This document shows, piece by piece, positions 40,485-59,941 of a stretch of 64,000 bases of DNA. Every line of letters begins with the position of its first letter. The first letter of the stretch is position 1. This DNA is from Promethearchaeota archaeon. Lineage in GTDB: Archaea > Asgardarchaeota > Lokiarchaeia > Sigyniarchaeales > SOKP01. The stretch is taken from the NCBI GenBank assembly GCA_020343655.1, contig CP070805.1, positions 2,086,676-2,150,675 of the forward strand. The letters run 5' to 3'. A program made the position numbers and the translations under genes. Below the pieces are notes generated by a model. It did no database searches and was not told the DNA's origin. It saw nothing but the letters and a program-made list of their open reading frames with translations.

Positions 40485-40589
40485 GCAGACGTAGCCTAGC
40501 TGGTAAGACGCCGGCCTTGAGATTATTATGATATGAACAAGCTAGCCGGTGCGCGTGAGCGCTCGGGGGTTCGAGTCCCTCCGTCTGCG
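40485..40589 (+). tRNA. tRNA-Ser (anticodon UGA) with 22-nt intron at canonical 37/38 position
   Basis: The acceptor stem is GCAGACG/CGTCTGC and the anticodon stem is CCGGC/GCCGG. The loop is CTTGAG|intron 40522-40543|A. Anticodon-loop CTTG pairs with intron CAAG, leaving 3-nt bulges at both junctions. The variable arm is 15 nt. There is one C-A mismatch in the D stem. Confidence 0.85.
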
Positions 40590-46641: not shown

Positions 46642-48567
46642 TTACTTCAACTCCTTTAGTTTTTCTTTTATTGAATTTTCTAACTCCTTAGAAACAACAG
46701 CACCATCAACTTTTCCACGTACTTTTTTCATAACTTCTCCCATTAAGGGCCCTTTTGCTCGCATTTCTTTTTCTTTTATTATTTTAGAGTTATTGTTTAC
46801 TAATTCGGTTATCAATTGTTTAAGATCATCTATGGAAATACTCTCGATTTTTAATTTCTTTCTAATTTGACCAATAGAGAGTTCTGGGGTATCGGCTTTT
46901 AGGCTCATTATTTCTTCAATTGCTTCTTTACTAATTTTTTTTTCTTTTAGAAGGTTAAAGATTTCCGCAAAATCGTTGTCAGTAATATTTTCGATGTTTT
47001 TCCCGTCCCTTCTAAGAGCAGTTGTTGTTTCAAGTAGAGTTGTGAAAACTAATGAAGGATTCTCTGGATACAATTTTATTAAATTATCAAATAACTTGAG
47101 TTTTCCCGTAAAAATTAAGTCTTTTATGAATCTTTCCTCAATTTTGTATTTTTTAGAATACTGTTTAATTGTTACCCAAGGATATTCTGGAAGATTTTTT
47201 CTAATTTCATTGATTTCTTCTTCGGTATTAAAAATAGCTTCAGTATCAGTATCAGGATATAACCTTGCTCCTCCATGAAGTTCTCTTAAAAATTCTGTAT
47301 TACCATTCTCTAGAGCTCTTCTAGTCTCGGGAGGGACCCCCTTAAAAGCAAACTTAACTCGATTAATTATGACATTCATTGCTTTATTCACTTCTTTCTT
47401 TGATCCTAAAACTAATACAAAACAATCATTTTCTTTCGATTCTAATTTCTCTTTGATTTTTTTAATATCATCATTTGAGAAATTATATGTACTTAAATCT
47501 TCATCTGAATGAATAATGCCTCTTAGGCCAGAAATCAATTTTACTTTGCTACTAACTTCAGTACCAAATCTATAGTCTTCCATTAATTCTTTTCCAAATA
47601 AGCCCTTAAATCCACTGAAATTAATCCCAAATAATAATTTTCCTGATTTAATACCTTTAGTTATAAAATTGGATTTGGTTTTAGCTAAAGAATCAGTTAA
47701 ATCTACAGGATTATCTGGAATAGCGCTTTCATCTAATTTTCTTTTTTCAAGTTCTTCTTTAATTTCAAGTAGTTTTAATTGTCGTGAGATTTCATGATTG
47801 ATTAAGACGGGGATCCATCCTAATTTTTGAACTCCTTTTATTTCAATCCTAGTCCCTGCTTCAATACTAACATTAACATCTTGTCTAATTGATCCGAGAA
47901 CTTTTTTTACGTTTGTTGACCATAATAGTAATCCTATTCGTTCAGCGCATTCTCGACATTCCTCTGGTGTATTTATATCCGGCTTTGTTGTGACCTCTAT
48001 TAATGGAATTCCTAAGCGATCTAAACGAAAAAAATTCACTTTATTTTCTGTTTTAATTTTTCTCGCAGCCTCTTCCTCTAAACTTAAGATATCTAATCGA
48101 ATTTTTTTACCACTTTCTAAAGTTATGTAGCCATCAGTTCCAAGTATCATTGTACGTTGAAACCCGCATGGAACACTTCCATCAAGGTAGTTTTTTCTAC
48201 AAACATGCATTTCTTCAATTATATTAGCATTTAGAAGCATGGCAATTTGTAAAGCAATCATTCTAGCTTCTAAATTGCAGGAAAAGGGAGGAGTATCATC
48301 GAGTTCATAAGTACATACTACATCATTATATCCTTCATATGTAATTCCCATTCCCTTTTCGTATTCTGTAAGCATTGCTTTATCAAAAGTACCCATTTCA
48401 CCTAAAACAGGTCGCATTTTTCGCCTTATTGTAAAATCTGGGGCTCTAGTTCCCTGTAGTTTCGCAGGGCATCTACAAAATAATTTTTTTTCCGTGTCAA
48501 GCTGTTGATGGATCTCAAGCCCGCATTTAAGCCCCATTTTTTCATAATCATATTGTTCCATATTCAA
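46642..48567 (-). CDS. gatE: Glu-tRNA(Gln) amidotransferase subunit E
   Basis: Has the GLKCGLEIHQQL N-terminus and a GatB/E-like core plus insertion domain. Length is 641 aa. Confidence 0.9.
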   Translation of the reverse strand: MNMEQYDYEKMGLKCGLEIHQQLDTEKKLFCRCPAKLQGTRAPDFTIRRKMRPVLGEMGTFDKAMLTEYEKGMGITYEGYNDVVCTYELDDTPPFSCNLEARMIALQIAMLLNANIIEEMHVCRKNYLDGSVPCGFQRTMILGTDGYITLESGKKIRLDILSLEEEAARKIKTENKVNFFRLDRLGIPLIEVTTKPDINTPEECRECAERIGLLLWSTNVKKVLGSIRQDVNVSIEAGTRIEIKGVQKLGWIPVLINHEISRQLKLLEIKEELEKRKLDESAIPDNPVDLTDSLAKTKSNFITKGIKSGKLLFGINFSGFKGLFGKELMEDYRFGTEVSSKVKLISGLRGIIHSDEDLSTYNFSNDDIKKIKEKLESKENDCFVLVLGSKKEVNKAMNVIINRVKFAFKGVPPETRRALENGNTEFLRELHGGARLYPDTDTEAIFNTEEEINEIRKNLPEYPWVTIKQYSKKYKIEERFIKDLIFTGKLKLFDNLIKLYPENPSLVFTTLLETTTALRRDGKNIENITDNDFAEIFNLLKEKKISKEAIEEIMSLKADTPELSIGQIRKKLKIESISIDDLKQLITELVNNNSKIIKEKEMRAKGPLMGEVMKKVRGKVDGAVVSKELENSIKEKLKELK

Positions 48568-51334: not shown

Positions 51335-52963
51335 TTAAAGTACTTTAGAAACATAGACTCCATCTAAATTATATCCCATTTCATAGAACCAATCTCTTGC
51401 TCCGATTCCACTTATTACAGCTAACTTTTTTGCATCAAACTCTTCAAAAGATATCTTTTCAGCGTTTTCCATTAATAGTTTTCCAAAACCTCTATGTTGA
51501 ATTTGAGTGTATCGATTTGGTTTTAAATCTTTTGGAACAAGTTCACCCACTACTTTGATTTCTCTTACAATCATAGTTTTTCCATCATTTAATTCTGGTC
51601 TATGAGCGAATTCTGAGGGTTTTCTTAAGCGTAAATATCCAATTAAATAATCTTCGTTTTTATTCTCATAAGACAAGAATATTTCTTTCCCTTGAGAAGC
51701 ATCATAATCTAATCGATACAGTTTAACTTCGTCCAAAGATTTTTCATCGATAATTTCTTTTCTTTTACTGATACCGTACTCTTTGCATCTAATGCATTTA
51801 CAAGTTTCATTTATTTCTTTTAATCTTTCTTGTACCAACTGCCTTAAATTGCTATTTTTACATCCTGCTTCAATTAACGTAGCAGGGATGTCTCTCATAA
51901 TTCTTTGAATTCTAACATATGGAGGAAGATCAGTCTTAACCTTTGCTATTAAATCTATTAATTCTTTATCAGAATATGGAGTATATTTGCCCTTTTTCCA
52001 CCAATTGTATAATTCAGTACCACTTATTACTAGGGTAGGATAAATCTTTAACATATCAGGTCGATATTCTGGAATAGAAAATAAAATATCAAATAATTCT
52101 AAATCTTTATCGATACTTGAACCTGGTAAATTTGGCATTATGTGTGCGTTAATTTTTAATCCTGCATCTTTAGCAATCCTTATCGATTCAATGCTATCAG
52201 CGGTTGTATGCCCTCTCTTTATTAAATCATAGATTTCATTATAAATAGTTTGGATACCGATTTCAACTCGAGTAGTTCCAAAGTTTAACATATCATCAAT
52301 ATGTGTTTCCTTGCAATAATCTGGTCTTGTCTCAACAGTTATACCTATAACCCTTCTTTTGGATTTTTCTGCCACTATCTTGGCTTCTTCTAAACTGCCT
52401 GTTTTCTGTTCTATTATTCCTTCTAATGCCCCTTTAACGAATTCTGTTTGATAGTTCTGATCAGTTGATAAGAATGTCCCACCCATTATGATTAATTCGA
52501 TTTTATCTACAGCATGACCAATAGATTCTAAATCCTTAATTCTACTTTGGACTTGTAAGTAAGAATCATAATTGTTATGAATAGATCTCATAGCTGCTGG
52601 TTCTTGACCTGTATAAGATTGGGCTACTTTTTCTCCAGGCTGAGAATCTTGCCCTGGACAATATACACAAGTTCCAGGACAAGGAAGAGGTTTTGTCATA
52701 ATAGCTATAACAGATACACCAGATAAAGTTCTGGTTTTTCTTCTCTTAAGAATCTGGGTAATTATTAGTTTTTCTTGTTCCGTTGCAAAATCCAGGATTG
52801 TTGCATTTTTAATGACTTTATTGTATCTATATTTTTTTCCTATTCTACCTTTTATATTAGTAATTTTTTCTCTTGGAGTTTCTGGATTCCTTATTAAATA
52901 ATTTATGATCTCTCTTGAAATAAGTTTAATTTTTTCAGGAAATTCAGTTTTTTCTTGTACCAT
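51335..52963 (-). CDS. elp3: Elp3-type radical SAM / GNAT tRNA modification enzyme
   Basis: Has the radical SAM cluster motif CPGTCVYCPG and a C-terminal GNAT domain with QHRGFGKLLM. Confidence 0.9.
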   Translation of the reverse strand: MVQEKTEFPEKIKLISREIINYLIRNPETPREKITNIKGRIGKKYRYNKVIKNATILDFATEQEKLIITQILKRRKTRTLSGVSVIAIMTKPLPCPGTCVYCPGQDSQPGEKVAQSYTGQEPAAMRSIHNNYDSYLQVQSRIKDLESIGHAVDKIELIIMGGTFLSTDQNYQTEFVKGALEGIIEQKTGSLEEAKIVAEKSKRRVIGITVETRPDYCKETHIDDMLNFGTTRVEIGIQTIYNEIYDLIKRGHTTADSIESIRIAKDAGLKINAHIMPNLPGSSIDKDLELFDILFSIPEYRPDMLKIYPTLVISGTELYNWWKKGKYTPYSDKELIDLIAKVKTDLPPYVRIQRIMRDIPATLIEAGCKNSNLRQLVQERLKEINETCKCIRCKEYGISKRKEIIDEKSLDEVKLYRLDYDASQGKEIFLSYENKNEDYLIGYLRLRKPSEFAHRPELNDGKTMIVREIKVVGELVPKDLKPNRYTQIQHRGFGKLLMENAEKISFEEFDAKKLAVISGIGARDWFYEMGYNLDGVYVSKVL

Positions 52964-57542: not shown

Positions 57543-58241
57543 ATGACTAATATTGAAATTAGGAATCATCCAAAATTTAAAAATGTCTATATATCTGGCT
57601 CTCAAGAATATTTAAAACTCTATACAAAAAATTTAGATGTGGGTAAAAGAATCTACGGAGAGAAGTTGATTATACATAAGGATATACAATATAGAGAATG
57701 GGATCCTTTTAGAAGTAAATTGGCAGCATTAATTTTAGAAAATCCCATTACAAATTTCTTAACAGATAATTTAAAGTGTTTATATTTAGGAGCTTCTTCA
57801 GGTACCACTATTTCTCATCTTTCCGATATCATACAATCTGGAATCATATATGGTGTAGAATTCTCAGAAAGAAGTATTAGACAATTAATTCAAAATACTT
57901 CAAAAAGGGTAAATATCGTTCCAATTTTGGCAGATGCCCGCTTTCCAGAAAGTTATGCTAAATACTTTTTTACAGATATAGATTTAATCTATCAGGATGT
58001 TGCCCAACCACGACAAGCCAATATTGCGGTAGAAAATTGTAATTACTATCTGAAGAATGATGGTATTTTAATTATAGCTATTAAATCTCAATCAATTGAT
58101 AGTATTCAAAAATCTGAATATATTTATGCTCAAGAGAAAAAGATCCTAGAAAAAGCAGGATATCAAATCTTAGAAAGTATAAATATCCATAAATATGCTG
58201 CTAATCACATTATTTTGATAGCTAAAAAAGCAATTAGTTAA
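57543..58241 (+). CDS. flpA: Fibrillarin (rRNA/tRNA 2'-O-methyltransferase)
   Basis: Contains the LYLGASSGTTISHLSDI SAM-binding motif. Length is 232 aa. Confidence 0.95.
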   Translation: MTNIEIRNHPKFKNVYISGSQEYLKLYTKNLDVGKRIYGEKLIIHKDIQYREWDPFRSKLAALILENPITNFLTDNLKCLYLGASSGTTISHLSDIIQSGIIYGVEFSERSIRQLIQNTSKRVNIVPILADARFPESYAKYFFTDIDLIYQDVAQPRQANIAVENCNYYLKNDGILIIAIKSQSIDSIQKSEYIYAQEKKILEKAGYQILESINIHKYAANHIILIAKKAIS

Positions 58242-58875
58242 GAAACTCTGTTATTTTTCTGTTAGACAATTCTTCACTTATTATTTTTTTAGTTGTATCC
58301 CATGACTTCCTAGCAAAAATAGGTGGTTTTTTATTTTTTTTTACATATTCTCTCATGAATTCTATTGTTCTAACATCAGAAGGATATCCTGAGCCAAAAT
58401 TTCCGTATTCATCCTGGAGTTCTCCAATTAAGGCATCTCTTTTATCTTTAGCTATTATAGAACCTGCTGATACAATTGGATATATATCATCAGCCTTGTG
58501 TTTAGAGACTATTTTTTTAGGGGTATAATTTAATAATGCTTTTATAGATTCTCCGAATCTCTGTTCATTCACATCAACAGCGTCTATATAGATGATATCT
58601 GGTTTCAAATTATTAATTATCTCTGCCATTTTTAGTTCTTCAAGTCGATTCATTGTGATTTTTTTAAGTTCTCTCTCATCAATTTCCTGAGGTCCAATTA
58701 CAATGATTTTATGGGAATAACAGTTATTCTTTAATATATTAGCTAATTTACTCCTCTTTTTAGGAGATAATCTCTTTGAATCTTTAACCCCAATTTCAGA
58801 TAAAAAGTCTATTTTTGATTTGAAAAAACATACTCCACATAAAACCATTGGGCCTAAGACAGAGCCTTTTGACAT
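58234..58875 (-). CDS. rnhB: Ribonuclease HII, ORF as callable from first ATG (lacks the GIDEAGRG strand; see findings)
   Basis: GSVLGPMVLCGV, DSKRLSPKKR and ASIIAKDKRD blocks are typical of RNase HII. The catalytic N-terminal motif is encoded upstream, beyond an in-frame TAA. Confidence 0.85.
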   Translation of the reverse strand: MSKGSVLGPMVLCGVCFFKSKIDFLSEIGVKDSKRLSPKKRSKLANILKNNCYSHKIIVIGPQEIDERELKKITMNRLEELKMAEIINNLKPDIIYIDAVDVNEQRFGESIKALLNYTPKKIVSKHKADDIYPIVSAGSIIAKDKRDALIGELQDEYGNFGSGYPSDVRTIEFMREYVKKNKKPPIFARKSWDTTKKIISEELSNRKITEFLN

Positions 58876-58896
58876 ATAATTCGAAGTGAATTAAAT
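58867..58896 (-). other. 30-nt in-frame intervening segment with TAA inside the RNase HII GIDEAGRG motif
   Basis: In gene sense the sequence reads AGA|ATT TAA TTC ACT TCG AAT TAT ATG TCA AAA|GGC. Deleting the 30 nt restores GIDEAGRGSVLGPMV. Confidence 0.6.
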
Positions 58897-58939
58897 TCTA
58901 CCAGCCTCGTCTATCCCACAAATTAATTCTATTTTATCC

Positions 58940-59941
58940 TCATGATTCTTGGATGAGTTCAATGAATTCTTCTTCATTATCCAGTTTTTCTAAATTTTTA
59001 ATTCTAACAATGGGAATTTTTTCCTTTTTAAACATCTCAGGAATTTTAATATCGTTATCAATTATTAAGAGTGAAGTCTTGTGGAATAAATCTGCGAAAA
59101 TTTTTAGACATTTCAAACTCATTTCATTGACTTTACCTTGTTCTTCTGAAATACTAGAAAAAAGAGGATAAAATCCTTCTAAATCTTTTTTTTCGGACGT
59201 AGAGTATAAGGATAATTTAAAGGGAATTGACCCTTTCTTATACCAGTATGAAGTAAGGCCGATATCCCTTATTATATTTTGTATGTGAGATTCAAATTCA
59301 TTTAATTCTTTCTCTTCAAAGATTTTTTTATCATCGACAATATTTTCAATAGGCCATCCAAAAACGTTTATTTTTTTAAAAAGATCATTATTTTCCAATA
59401 TCTCTAGTAGCTTTTCAGCAATTTTTTCAGATGGACGCATAGATTCGTTTTCATATGCACACAAGGTTCTCTTCGTTACACCTAAAGTTTCTGATAGTTC
59501 CTTTCTTGTTATTGAATGATTTTCTCTTAGTATTTTCATTAAACTACCATTTAAAAACACAACTCCACCACCCCTTCTTGCTAAGATATAAGGATATCTA
59601 TCGTTAAGGATATTCTCAAATGTATTAAGAGTAATAAAGGGTAAACCTTCTCTTATATAGATTGTATTGTCGTCTAATTTTTGGTATCGATTCCTTAGTC
59701 CGATTAATAATGGCTTTGATTTGAGAATTGTAGATAAAGATTTAATATCTCGAATTATATCAGGGTTTAAATTATCAATATTAGGAAATATTTTTACACT
59801 AAATATCTGATTTTCTTTTTTAACTAACAGATCAAAGCAGAATTTGTTTTTCTTAGTAGCAAAATTTTCCAATACTAATGTTTCATAATTAGCATTCTTT
59901 AATAAAACGTCAATTCTCTCAAGAATCTTTTCAATCATCAA
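58940..59941 (-). CDS. Putative transcriptional regulator with central XRE-type HTH
   Basis: The HTH segment is ITRKELSETLGVTKRTLCAYENESMRPS, in the middle of a 333-aa protein. Confidence 0.55.
   Translation of the reverse strand: MMIEKILERIDVLLKNANYETLVLENFATKKNKFCFDLLVKKENQIFSVKIFPNIDNLNPDIIRDIKSLSTILKSKPLLIGLRNRYQKLDDNTIYIREGLPFITLNTFENILNDRYPYILARRGGGVVFLNGSLMKILRENHSITRKELSETLGVTKRTLCAYENESMRPSEKIAEKLLEILENNDLFKKINVFGWPIENIVDDKKIFEEKELNEFESHIQNIIRDIGLTSYWYKKGSIPFKLSLYSTSEKKDLEGFYPLFSSISEEQGKVNEMSLKCLKIFADLFHKTSLLIIDNDIKIPEMFKKEKIPIVRIKNLEKLDNEEEFIELIQES

Follow-up and report, generated by a model that had tools for sequence, protein, structure and literature searches.

A probable bulge-helix-bulge intron within the catalytic motif of the RNase HII gene (rnhB) of Promethearchaeota and two other archaeal phyla

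Introduction

A bulge-helix-bulge (BHB) intron interrupts the cbf5 pre-mRNA of Crenarchaeota, where it occurs in Desulfurococcales and Sulfolobales (Watanabe 2002, Yoshinari 2006, Yokobori 2009 = PMC2738675). This intron is cleaved by a hetero-oligomeric tRNA-splicing endonuclease (EndA), and its pattern of gain and loss is patchy among relatives (PMC2738675). In Haloferax volcanii, an intron of 46 nucleotides (nt) in the 5′ untranslated region (5′-UTR) of HVO_1309 is flanked by a BHB motif, as was shown by circular RNA sequencing (circRNA-seq) and in vitro cleavage (PMC7714728). A study of 2020 and a review of 2023 give cbf5 as the only coding-sequence case and HVO_1309 as the 5′-UTR case, and a structural paper of 2025 cites only the cbf5 work. 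Asgard archaea are reported to possess a broad-specificity (alpha-beta)2 EndA with an L1 loop (PMC5829648). Here we analyzed the RNase HII gene (rnhB) in a 64,000-nt stretch of the Promethearchaeota archaeon contig CP070805.1 (assembly GCA_020343655.1, positions 2,086,676 to 2,150,675; hereafter the window). The gene is split by a 30-nt insert, which is very probably an archaeal BHB intron in a coding sequence, as judged from its comparison with related junctions.

The predicted rnhB intron resembles the cbf5 intron in being a BHB-type element in an archaeal coding sequence, for which a cut between bulge residues 2 and 3 is predicted or has been shown, and in occurring, with patchy gain and loss among relatives, in lineages that have an (alpha-beta)2 EndA. 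In contrast to cbf5, the host gene encodes RNase HII instead of a pseudouridine synthase, and the hosts are Asgard archaea, Thermoplasmatota and DPANN instead of Crenarchaeota. Whereas the BHB motif of the cbf5 intron is described as relaxed or unconventional, the rnhB intron keeps a strict 3-4-3 core, and the same rnhB codon holds sequence-unrelated introns in three phyla. The splicing of cbf5 has been proven by cDNA, whereas that of rnhB is inferred from sequence. The rnhB intron is one that works like the cbf5 intron but lies outside the cbf5 family, since both the gene and the lineages differ.

The HVO_1309 intron is likewise a short BHB-flanked mRNA element and is a substrate of the splicing endonuclease, as is predicted for rnhB. 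It lies, however, in a 5′-UTR and leaves the reading frame uninterrupted, whereas the rnhB intron splits a codon of the catalytic motif. A search of full-text literature, with most subscription journals outside its coverage, turned up no published BHB intron for RNase HII or for any protein gene of Asgard archaea. The rnhB intron is probably novel.

Results

Structure of the rnhB junction in the window

The rnhB open reading frame (ORF) as called spans 58234..58875 on the minus strand and encodes 213 amino acids with the N-terminus MSKGSVLGPMV. The deposited annotation of the protein is 'MAG: ribonuclease HII [Promethearchaeota archaeon]', and the host gene was identified as RNase HII by PF01351 and by matches to PDB structures. 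When the same frame on the minus strand is translated from the ATG at 58977, it reads MKKNSLNSSKNHEDKIELICGIDEAGRI*FTSNYMSKGSVLGPMV..., that is, ...GIDEAGR-I-TAA-...-ATG-SK-GSVLGPMV. The in-frame TAA (58893-58891) and the ATG chosen by the ORF caller (58875-58873) lie inside a 30-nt insert at 58896..58867, ATTTAATTCACTTCGAATTATATGTCAAAA on the minus strand, which also contains the hairpin TAATTC-ACTTC-GAATTA. Deletion of these 30 nt restores the catalytic GIDEAGRG strand and gives the product GIDEAGRGSVLGPMV. Upstream, both the ATG 58977 and a TTG at 58962 are in frame with rnhB. An earlier note on this DNA had described this layout (a 30-nt insert with TAA, ATG and hairpin, and the two upstream starts), and all of its elements were present on re-reading. 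Its statement that the callable ORF lacks the catalytic strand, which removal of 30 nt restores as GIDEAGRG, was reproduced by translation. The 6-bp hairpin that it reported exists as well, but is only the core of a longer 9-bp intron helix.

In the predicted pre-mRNA, the D-E-A-G codons of exon 1 would pair with the G-S-V codons of exon 2 to form an outer helix. A 4-bp central helix would arise between UGGU, the last four exon 1 bases before the Arg codon, and GUCA, which lies close to the 3′ end of the insert. The remaining insert would form a 9-bp hairpin, and two 3-nt bulges, AGA and AAA, would be left on opposite strands. EndA would then cut after base 2 of each bulge, between 58898 and 58897 and between 58868 and 58867. 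An RtcB-type ligase would join AG to A, by which the Arg27 codon is rebuilt and the 30-nt intron is released, and the ligated mRNA would encode an RNase HII of 237 amino acids with an intact GIDEAGRG strand. The splicing of the rnhB mRNA, the action of EndA and RtcB on this RNA in vivo, and the fate of the excised intron are what we infer from the junction. The predicted elements in the window are as follows.

58898..58977, minus strand: rnhB exon 1, from ATG 58977 to the AG with which the split Arg27 codon starts; codes for MKKNSLNSSKNHEDKIELICGIDEAG(R), the catalytic Asp-Glu included
58868..58897, minus strand: predicted 30-nt BHB intron, phase 2, from base 3 of the 5′ bulge to base 2 of the 3′ bulge
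58234..58867, minus strand: rnhB exon 2, starting at A, base 3 of the Arg27 codon, and ending with the stop codon 58236-58234
58904..58912, minus strand: predicted outer helix h, 5′ strand, in exon 1, AGACGAGGC; partner 58866-58857
58857..58866, minus strand: predicted outer helix h, 3′ strand, in exon 2, GGCUCUGUCU; register ambiguous by one base in RNAalifold
58900..58903, minus strand: predicted central 4-bp helix H, 5′ strand, in exon 1, UGGU; pairs U-A, G-C, G.U and U.G with GUCA
58870..58873, minus strand: predicted central helix H, 3′ strand, in the intron, GUCA; partner 58903-58900
58897..58899, minus strand: 5′ bulge AGA; predicted 5′ splice site between 58898 and 58897
58867..58869, minus strand: 3′ bulge AAA; predicted 3′ splice site between 58868 and 58867
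58874..58896, minus strand: predicted intron hairpin h′, 9-bp stem AUUUAAUUC/GAAUUAUAU with one U.U; loop ACUUC 58887-58883

This geometry was built by hand and checked with a script. The window contains the 3-4-3 core, in which a 4-bp helix separates two 3-nt bulges on opposite strands, and every variant among the relatives retains this core together with a hairpin in the insert. Outer helix h has eight pairs with one mismatch and one bulged base. The intron hairpin h′ holds the in-frame TAA together with the A and U of the spurious ATG (58875-58873), the G of which (58873) is the first base of H. Beside the core, the junction shows the flanking helices h and h′ as well as covariation; a functional product ligated in the base-2 register was obtained in silico only. 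The earlier note had proposed a BHB and intron covariance check of the locus, and this hBHBh′ structure, covarying at the rnhB junction, is what such a check found.

The same architecture is seen in archaeal tRNA introns, and an example lies in the window itself. The gene for tRNA-Ser(UGA) at 40485-40589 on the plus strand is 105 nt long, has a long variable arm and scores 43.3 bits with Rfam, and it was missed by ARAGORN. Rfam shows an insertion in the anticodon-loop; parsed by hand, it corresponds to a canonical 37/38 BHB intron, 22 nt long, at about 40522-40543, with h CCGGC/GCCGG, H CUUG/CAAG and the bulges AGA and CUA. The bulge size and the 5′ bulge AGA are the same as in the rnhB intron, and the lengths are similar (22 versus 30 nt). 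Together with the EndA type reported for Asgard archaea, this intron-containing tRNA lends indirect support to the presence of EndA and an RtcB-type ligase in the host. In contrast to tRNA introns, the rnhB host is an mRNA, and the outer helix consists of two coding segments instead of the anticodon stem, so that it is constrained by the protein.

A group I or group II intron and an intein were also considered. Group I and group II introns have a ribozyme core of hundreds of nucleotides, and an intein is an in-frame protein-splicing domain. These candidates were rejected because the insert measures only 28-34 nt and Rfam finds only tRNAs in the window.

Distribution of the insert among relatives

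Among the best 120 homolog clusters, about 60 (72-100% identity) were called as truncated proteins of 204-213 amino acids, most of which start with M[LSQ][KIVR]GSVLGPMV; one is a frame-shifted call of 228 amino acids. Full-length orthologs, in which GIDEAGRGPVLGPMV is present, appear at 66-71% identity. We examined the DNA from species-representative genomes and metagenomes, in which we measured the distance from the GIDEAGR codons to the G[SP]V[LI]GP codons. A 30-nt insert was present at 44 of the 125 resolved loci, the window included, and a 31-nt insert at one; the other 80, among them most non-Asgard outgroups, had none. All inserts of this survey were at the same codon. The first pattern missed 36 loci, of which 30 were of the GVDDAGR type without a gap and six were left unassigned.

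In total, 41 distinct junctions were collected, all at this codon, from three phyla: Promethearchaeota, Thermoplasmatota and Aenigmatarchaeota. Their lengths are 30 nt (34 junctions), 31 nt (three), 29 nt (two), 34 nt (one) and 28 nt (one), seven being out of frame. The alignment of rnhB across Asgard relatives, which the earlier note had recommended, showed an insert shared at the same codon with a stop of varying identity; the note's assumption of an Asgard host was also borne out. An in-frame stop (TAA, TAG or TGA) lies inside the insert in 40 of the 41, and several inserts have two stops. With the exceptions of L158 and L170, the stop in the exon 1 frame falls no more than three codons from the Arg codon (39/41), and its contexts across the three intron families include AUU UAA, AUA UAG, AUA UGA, GAA UAG, AAG UAA and AGU UGA. 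This near-universal early stop may protect against the translation of unspliced RNA, or it may result from the A/U-rich helices.

Promethearchaeota: In a neighbor-joining tree of the spliced proteins, the insert spans a large clade, in which it is retained down to about 55% protein identity, and several insert-free subclades are nested within it. Nested subclades of this kind are the pattern expected of an old gain followed by repeated precise loss, as for cbf5 (PMC2738675). L162 has a 29-nt insert. Since one base of its intron helix is deleted, its exons are in different frames, and its gene call is the hybrid MWDRRGWQNLIHFEFMLKGSVLG.

Thermoplasmatota: L123, which is assigned to this phylum by named relatives at 85-91% identity, has a 31-nt insert. 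Its relatives carry inserts of 31 nt (L166) and 34 nt (L163-L165), and close relatives are uninterrupted. In the gene calls of this group, exon 1 and the intron are read in the +1 frame, giving GSMRQVENRSYCFCSPKGPV.

Aenigmatarchaeota: L158 belongs to this DPANN phylum. Of the best 120 homologs, 19 truly lacked the N-terminal motif; four further sequences missed by the regular expression carry A-I-D-E or G-I-E-E variants. DNA from three of the motif-less homologs showed inserts of 31 nt (L167, from an Aenigmarchaeota-named assembly), 29 nt (L169) and 28 nt (L170). As in Thermoplasmatota, the insert-bearing groups have close uninterrupted relatives.

The introns of the three phyla (L123 and L163-L166 in Thermoplasmatota; L158 and L167-L170 in Aenigmatarchaeota) are unrelated in sequence and identical in position. 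Within each phylum, the intron sequences appear to be monophyletic. All ten divergent variants form a perfect 4/4 central helix, and nine of the ten have the 9-bp stem, which is bulged in L162; the hairpin of L170 is shorter. The length differences map mainly to the loop, except for the stem deletion in L162 and the shorter hairpin in L170. The flanks GAYGARGCNGGNAG and RGGNCCNGU are partly self-complementary, which may predispose this site.

Two arrangements were seen beside these junctions. In L011, a species-representative metagenome-assembled genome, the rnhB intron is directly followed by a run of N, and a partial, degenerate copy of the junction lies downstream (around 2440-2560); this is probably a scaffolding artefact at a repeat-like hairpin. 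L171, a GC-rich relative in Aenigmatarchaeota, has no intron and reads ...HPDEAGRGPVIGPF at around 440-520, with no recognisable G-I-D or start codon upstream. Its N-terminus may be degenerate or differently initiated.

Covariation of the predicted helices

Two alignments were analyzed. A2 comprises 36 distinct junctions, and A3 comprises 39 sequences pooled from the three phyla, with loops trimmed to equal length and L162 and L170 left out. When the named hBHBh′ structure was imposed on A2, 89.2% of cells paired, versus 24.7-44.0% when the partners were slid by 1-3 columns. Eleven pairs showed changes on both sides, and none of 500 shuffles reached the observed value on any of five measures. 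In A3, 89% of cells paired, versus 26-44% in slid controls. Compensatory double changes were found in nine of nine pairs of the intron helix, and h′ was 91.5% paired. The central helix was 95.5% paired. The outer helix, which is coding sequence and varies little, was 83.7% paired; because it is coding, three of its pairs are invariant. Double-change cells numbered 62, against 14 expected, and again 0/500 shuffles reached the observed values. Across these tests, 13 pairs had double changes.

The central helix was fully paired (4/4) in 29 of the 36 variants and paired at three of four positions in the other seven, and it showed compensatory changes such as AGGG/CCUU, CGGC/GCCG and UGGU/ACCA. RNAalifold, to which no structure was given, recovered the central helix, the 3-nt 5′ bulge and the intron helix, with the outer helix shifted by one register. 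The comparative evidence in the aligned sequences that this structure is not due to chance is overwhelming.

Cleavage register

EndA cleaves between the second and third bulge residues (PMC2738675). Since the bulges vary among relatives, the coding sequence reports where the cuts must fall. A cut after base 2 yields G-R-G in 35 of the 36 variants and G-K-G in the remaining one (L111), and it also gives G-R/K-G in the 10 divergent variants. A cut after base 1 yields GIG or GTG in 7/36 variants. With a cut after base 3, which corresponds to simple removal of the block delimited by the earlier note, L108 (5′ bulge AGU) would encode GSG. By these predicted products, the base-2 register is the sole one that restores Gly-Arg/Lys-Gly in every variant tested.

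The composition of the bulges was as follows. In the 5′ bulge, the third base is free (A, G or U) and the first two are kept (AG or AA). In the 3′ bulge, the first two bases vary (AA, AU, AC, UA or UU), and the third is A or G without exception, so that the codon becomes AGA, AGG or AAA. The excised block is most likely 58897..58868, which lies 1 nt to the 5′ side of 58896..58867. The earlier note had likewise given a size of 30 nt, with boundaries that are 1 nt off the likely cleavage sites. The two blocks are indistinguishable in the window, where both boundaries carry an A; they are separable in relatives (L108, L001, L013, L022 and others). Exon 1 and exon 2 together comprise 711 nt and encode 237 amino acids.

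Exon 1 as coding sequence

In most insert-bearing Promethearchaeota, no stop interrupts the frame between the intron and a conserved ATG located 27-28 codons upstream of it. These genomes have a conserved N-terminus, M(M/T)K(K/R)NSLNSSKN, which also occurs in intron-less orthologs (MKKNSLN.SKN). Departures from the commonest codon in GIDEAGR are nearly all synonymous, with all four Gly, three Ile, two Asp and four Ala codons in use. By this pattern of codon changes, exon 1 is under purifying selection.

The spliced protein was compared with RNase HII of T. kodakarensis (2dfh, 1io2). It aligns with E = 1.6e-51, ICGIDEAGRGSVLGPMV to IAGIDEAGRGPVIGPMV, with no indel at the junction, and the Asp-Glu encoded by exon 1 aligns to D7 and E8. 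We take these two residues of the T. kodakarensis enzyme to be catalytic. Since the Asp-Glu of exon 1 would then be the catalytic pair, a product started from the internal Met would be inactive.

Discussion

Alternative explanations

The earlier note had left four explanations of the insert unranked, and among these it is the RNA-level excised intervening sequence that the BHB geometry, the covariation and the cleavage register favor. Translational recoding, by which ribosomes would read through the stop or hop over the insert with the hairpin as a stimulator, appears very unlikely, even though several features invite it: the stop within three codons of the Arg codon (39/41 junctions), a conserved hairpin that starts beside the potential take-off site, and Gly codons that flank the gap in the window. 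T4 gene 60 likewise has a short non-coding gap in its ORF, with a stop soon after the take-off site and a hairpin starting there. Its bypass, however, depends on matching codons at take-off and landing and does not cut the RNA, whereas the rnhB codons are unmatched and the features of an EndA substrate are conserved. Since inserts of 28, 29, 31 and 34 nt occur, in-frame readthrough cannot be general; it is impossible in seven junctions, the lengths of which are not divisible by 3. Moreover, the stop varies among TAA, TAG and TGA, and several inserts are double-stopped. A hop from Gly to Gly would cost the protein its conserved Arg-Gly, and only 15 of 41 junctions have two identical Gly codons; in the window they differ (GGU versus GGC). 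The Arg/Lys codon is the same as the last codon of the insert in just one of 41, and L108 has AGU (Ser) where Arg is needed, unless the codon is rebuilt by cleavage within the bulges. The bypass or readthrough option of the earlier note is contradicted by the loss of Arg-Gly, the poor match of the Gly codons, the AGU of L108 and the out-of-frame lengths. It also leaves unexplained why exon 1 and the 3′ end of the insert covary in the central helix, why the bulges stay at 3 nt, and why, in the 3′ bulge, base 3 alone is limited to A or G.

A two-piece or truncated enzyme, in which exon 1 would give a peptide of 28 amino acids and the 213-residue ORF would work alone or in complex with it, seems to us slightly less probable still. 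The 213-residue ORF is what gene callers annotate, and an in-frame ATG, GTG or TTG is available in 27 of the 41 inserts; in 14 of the 41 junctions, however, a start codon is missing between the last stop and exon 2, and ATG is present in only 17. The truncated product would be without the Asp-Glu of the DEAGRG strand, and the conserved RNA structure finds no explanation in such a model. That a recent insertion inactivated rnhB is extremely improbable. The in-frame stop and the absence of the catalytic strand from the callable ORF would suit a pseudogene, but the same interruption is kept across a large Promethearchaeota clade and two other phyla, both exons are open, the codon departures in GIDEAGR are nearly all synonymous, and the insert evolves by compensatory changes. 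The recent pseudogene suggested by the earlier note thus conflicts with an insert conserved in 41 junctions of three phyla and with purifying selection on exon 1. The remaining option, a lineage-specific loop of 10 residues combined with a sequencing or assembly error at the TAA, can practically be dismissed. The insert of the window is indeed in frame (30 nt). Independent assemblies from many projects, however, have a stop at the same codon with differing identity, lengths of 28, 29, 31 and 34 nt occur, the third-codon positions of the insert are not coding-like, and its two arms co-vary. A base-call error, as the earlier note had considered, does not account for a stop of varying identity in 40 of 41 junctions or for the seven lengths that are not multiples of 3.

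Several observations weigh against the BHB intron. Loose BHB geometry is frequent in the AT-rich window, with about 700 matches per strand, and the outer helix is imperfect, with its one mismatch and one bulge. RNAalifold favors an outer-helix register that would give a 4-nt 3′ bulge, and pair 18/48 of the central helix is mismatched in five of 39 sequences. No full-length GIDEAGRGSVLG protein, the expected product of a spliced transcript, was present among the best 120 homologs. Furthermore, the central helix contains two G.U pairs, and the strict BHB conformer has -8.5 kcal/mol, compared with -20.6 kcal/mol for the minimum free energy (MFE) fold of an 81-mer. Because of these G.U pairs, the strict conformer is not the thermodynamic optimum; the unconstrained MFE fold pairs the exon flanks around the hairpin without the central helix. 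The z-score of single-sequence folding was only -1.9, and the intron is not identifiable from folding energy alone. BHB geometry in one sequence is weak evidence. In favor of the intron, however, just 50 of 200,000 composition-preserving shuffles of the insert reached its helix scores when tested at this fixed site.

Origin and significance

The rnhB intron may be older than the divergence of Asgard archaea, Thermoplasmatota and DPANN, as an ancient mRNA intron with many later losses, or it may reflect repeated site-specific insertion of BHB introns into a self-complementary stretch of mRNA. In either case, it might be kept because it makes the synthesis of RNase HII depend on the tRNA-splicing machinery. 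We regard this proposal as tentative and rather doubtful. Repeated insertion would mean a homing-like or reverse-splicing mechanism of gain. If the dependence on the tRNA-splicing machinery is true, the near-universal early stop would guard against translating unspliced RNA, and mRNA splicing of the EndA/RtcB type, akin to that of HAC1/XBP1, would be maintained in the closest archaeal relatives of eukaryotes.

The splicing of HAC1 and XBP1 in eukaryotes is independent of the spliceosome: IRE1 cleaves, a tRNA-type ligase (RtcB or Trl1) ligates, and the XBP1 intron is 26 nt long and defined by stem-loops. The predicted rnhB intron is similarly a very short mRNA intron that is defined by RNA structure, would be removed by protein enzymes, and would have to be spliced for a functional protein to be made. 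It differs from HAC1/XBP1 in the nuclease, which is IRE1 in the latter, and in the recognition motif, and HAC1/XBP1 is a regulated stress switch.

In the searched literature, rnhB would be the second gene after cbf5 with a BHB intron in its coding sequence, and the first in Asgard archaea, Thermoplasmatota and DPANN. The presence of unrelated introns at the same codon in three phyla raises the questions of how such introns arise and why they persist. For annotation, RNase HII records including P0001-P0016 and others, P0121, P0126, P0127, P0131, P0270 and P0321 are N-terminally truncated (204-213 amino acids) or have a spurious N-terminus. The Thermoplasmatota records have the spurious N-terminus GSMRQVENRSYCFCSPK, which is exon 1 and the intron in the +1 frame, and P0103 is a similar frame-hybrid. 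Such deposited records, that of the window genome included, account for about 60 of the best 120 homolog clusters and lack the catalytic Asp-Glu, and metabolic or repair inferences drawn from them would be wrong. The frame-fusing BHB geometry could serve as a basis for screening other genes for hidden splits, and the interest for archaeal RNA biology and genome annotation is clear.

Other sites in the window and neighboring genes

Rfam at the gathering threshold gave no match at the rnhB locus and matched only tRNAs in the window. When a covariance model of the rnhB junction was run over the window with filters off, no sibling intron was found; the next best match had 10.5 bits (E = 2.6). A generic BHB scan with an ORF-fusion test was also performed over the window and proved much too permissive, with about 700 matches per strand. 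Its filter demanded flanks of 60 codons, so that shorter exons escape, and it missed rnhB itself, as exon 1 is shorter than 60 codons. The scan candidates +46859-46885, +52872-52944 and -5710-5616 were rejected, as they look like antisense frames or adjacent genes by position and sequence.

The gene preceding rnhB encodes 333 amino acids and ends with the stop codon 58942-58940. Exon 1, when counted from ATG 58977, overlaps it by 38 nt (58940-58977, minus strand). In L162, the ortholog of this preceding gene carries a PDDEXK_19 and an HTH_3 domain. The window and L162 share the gene order HTH-CBS, PDDEXK-HTH, rnhB and then a convergent gene, and in L162 the ortholog of the convergent gene is fibrillarin, with Nop5 next to it.

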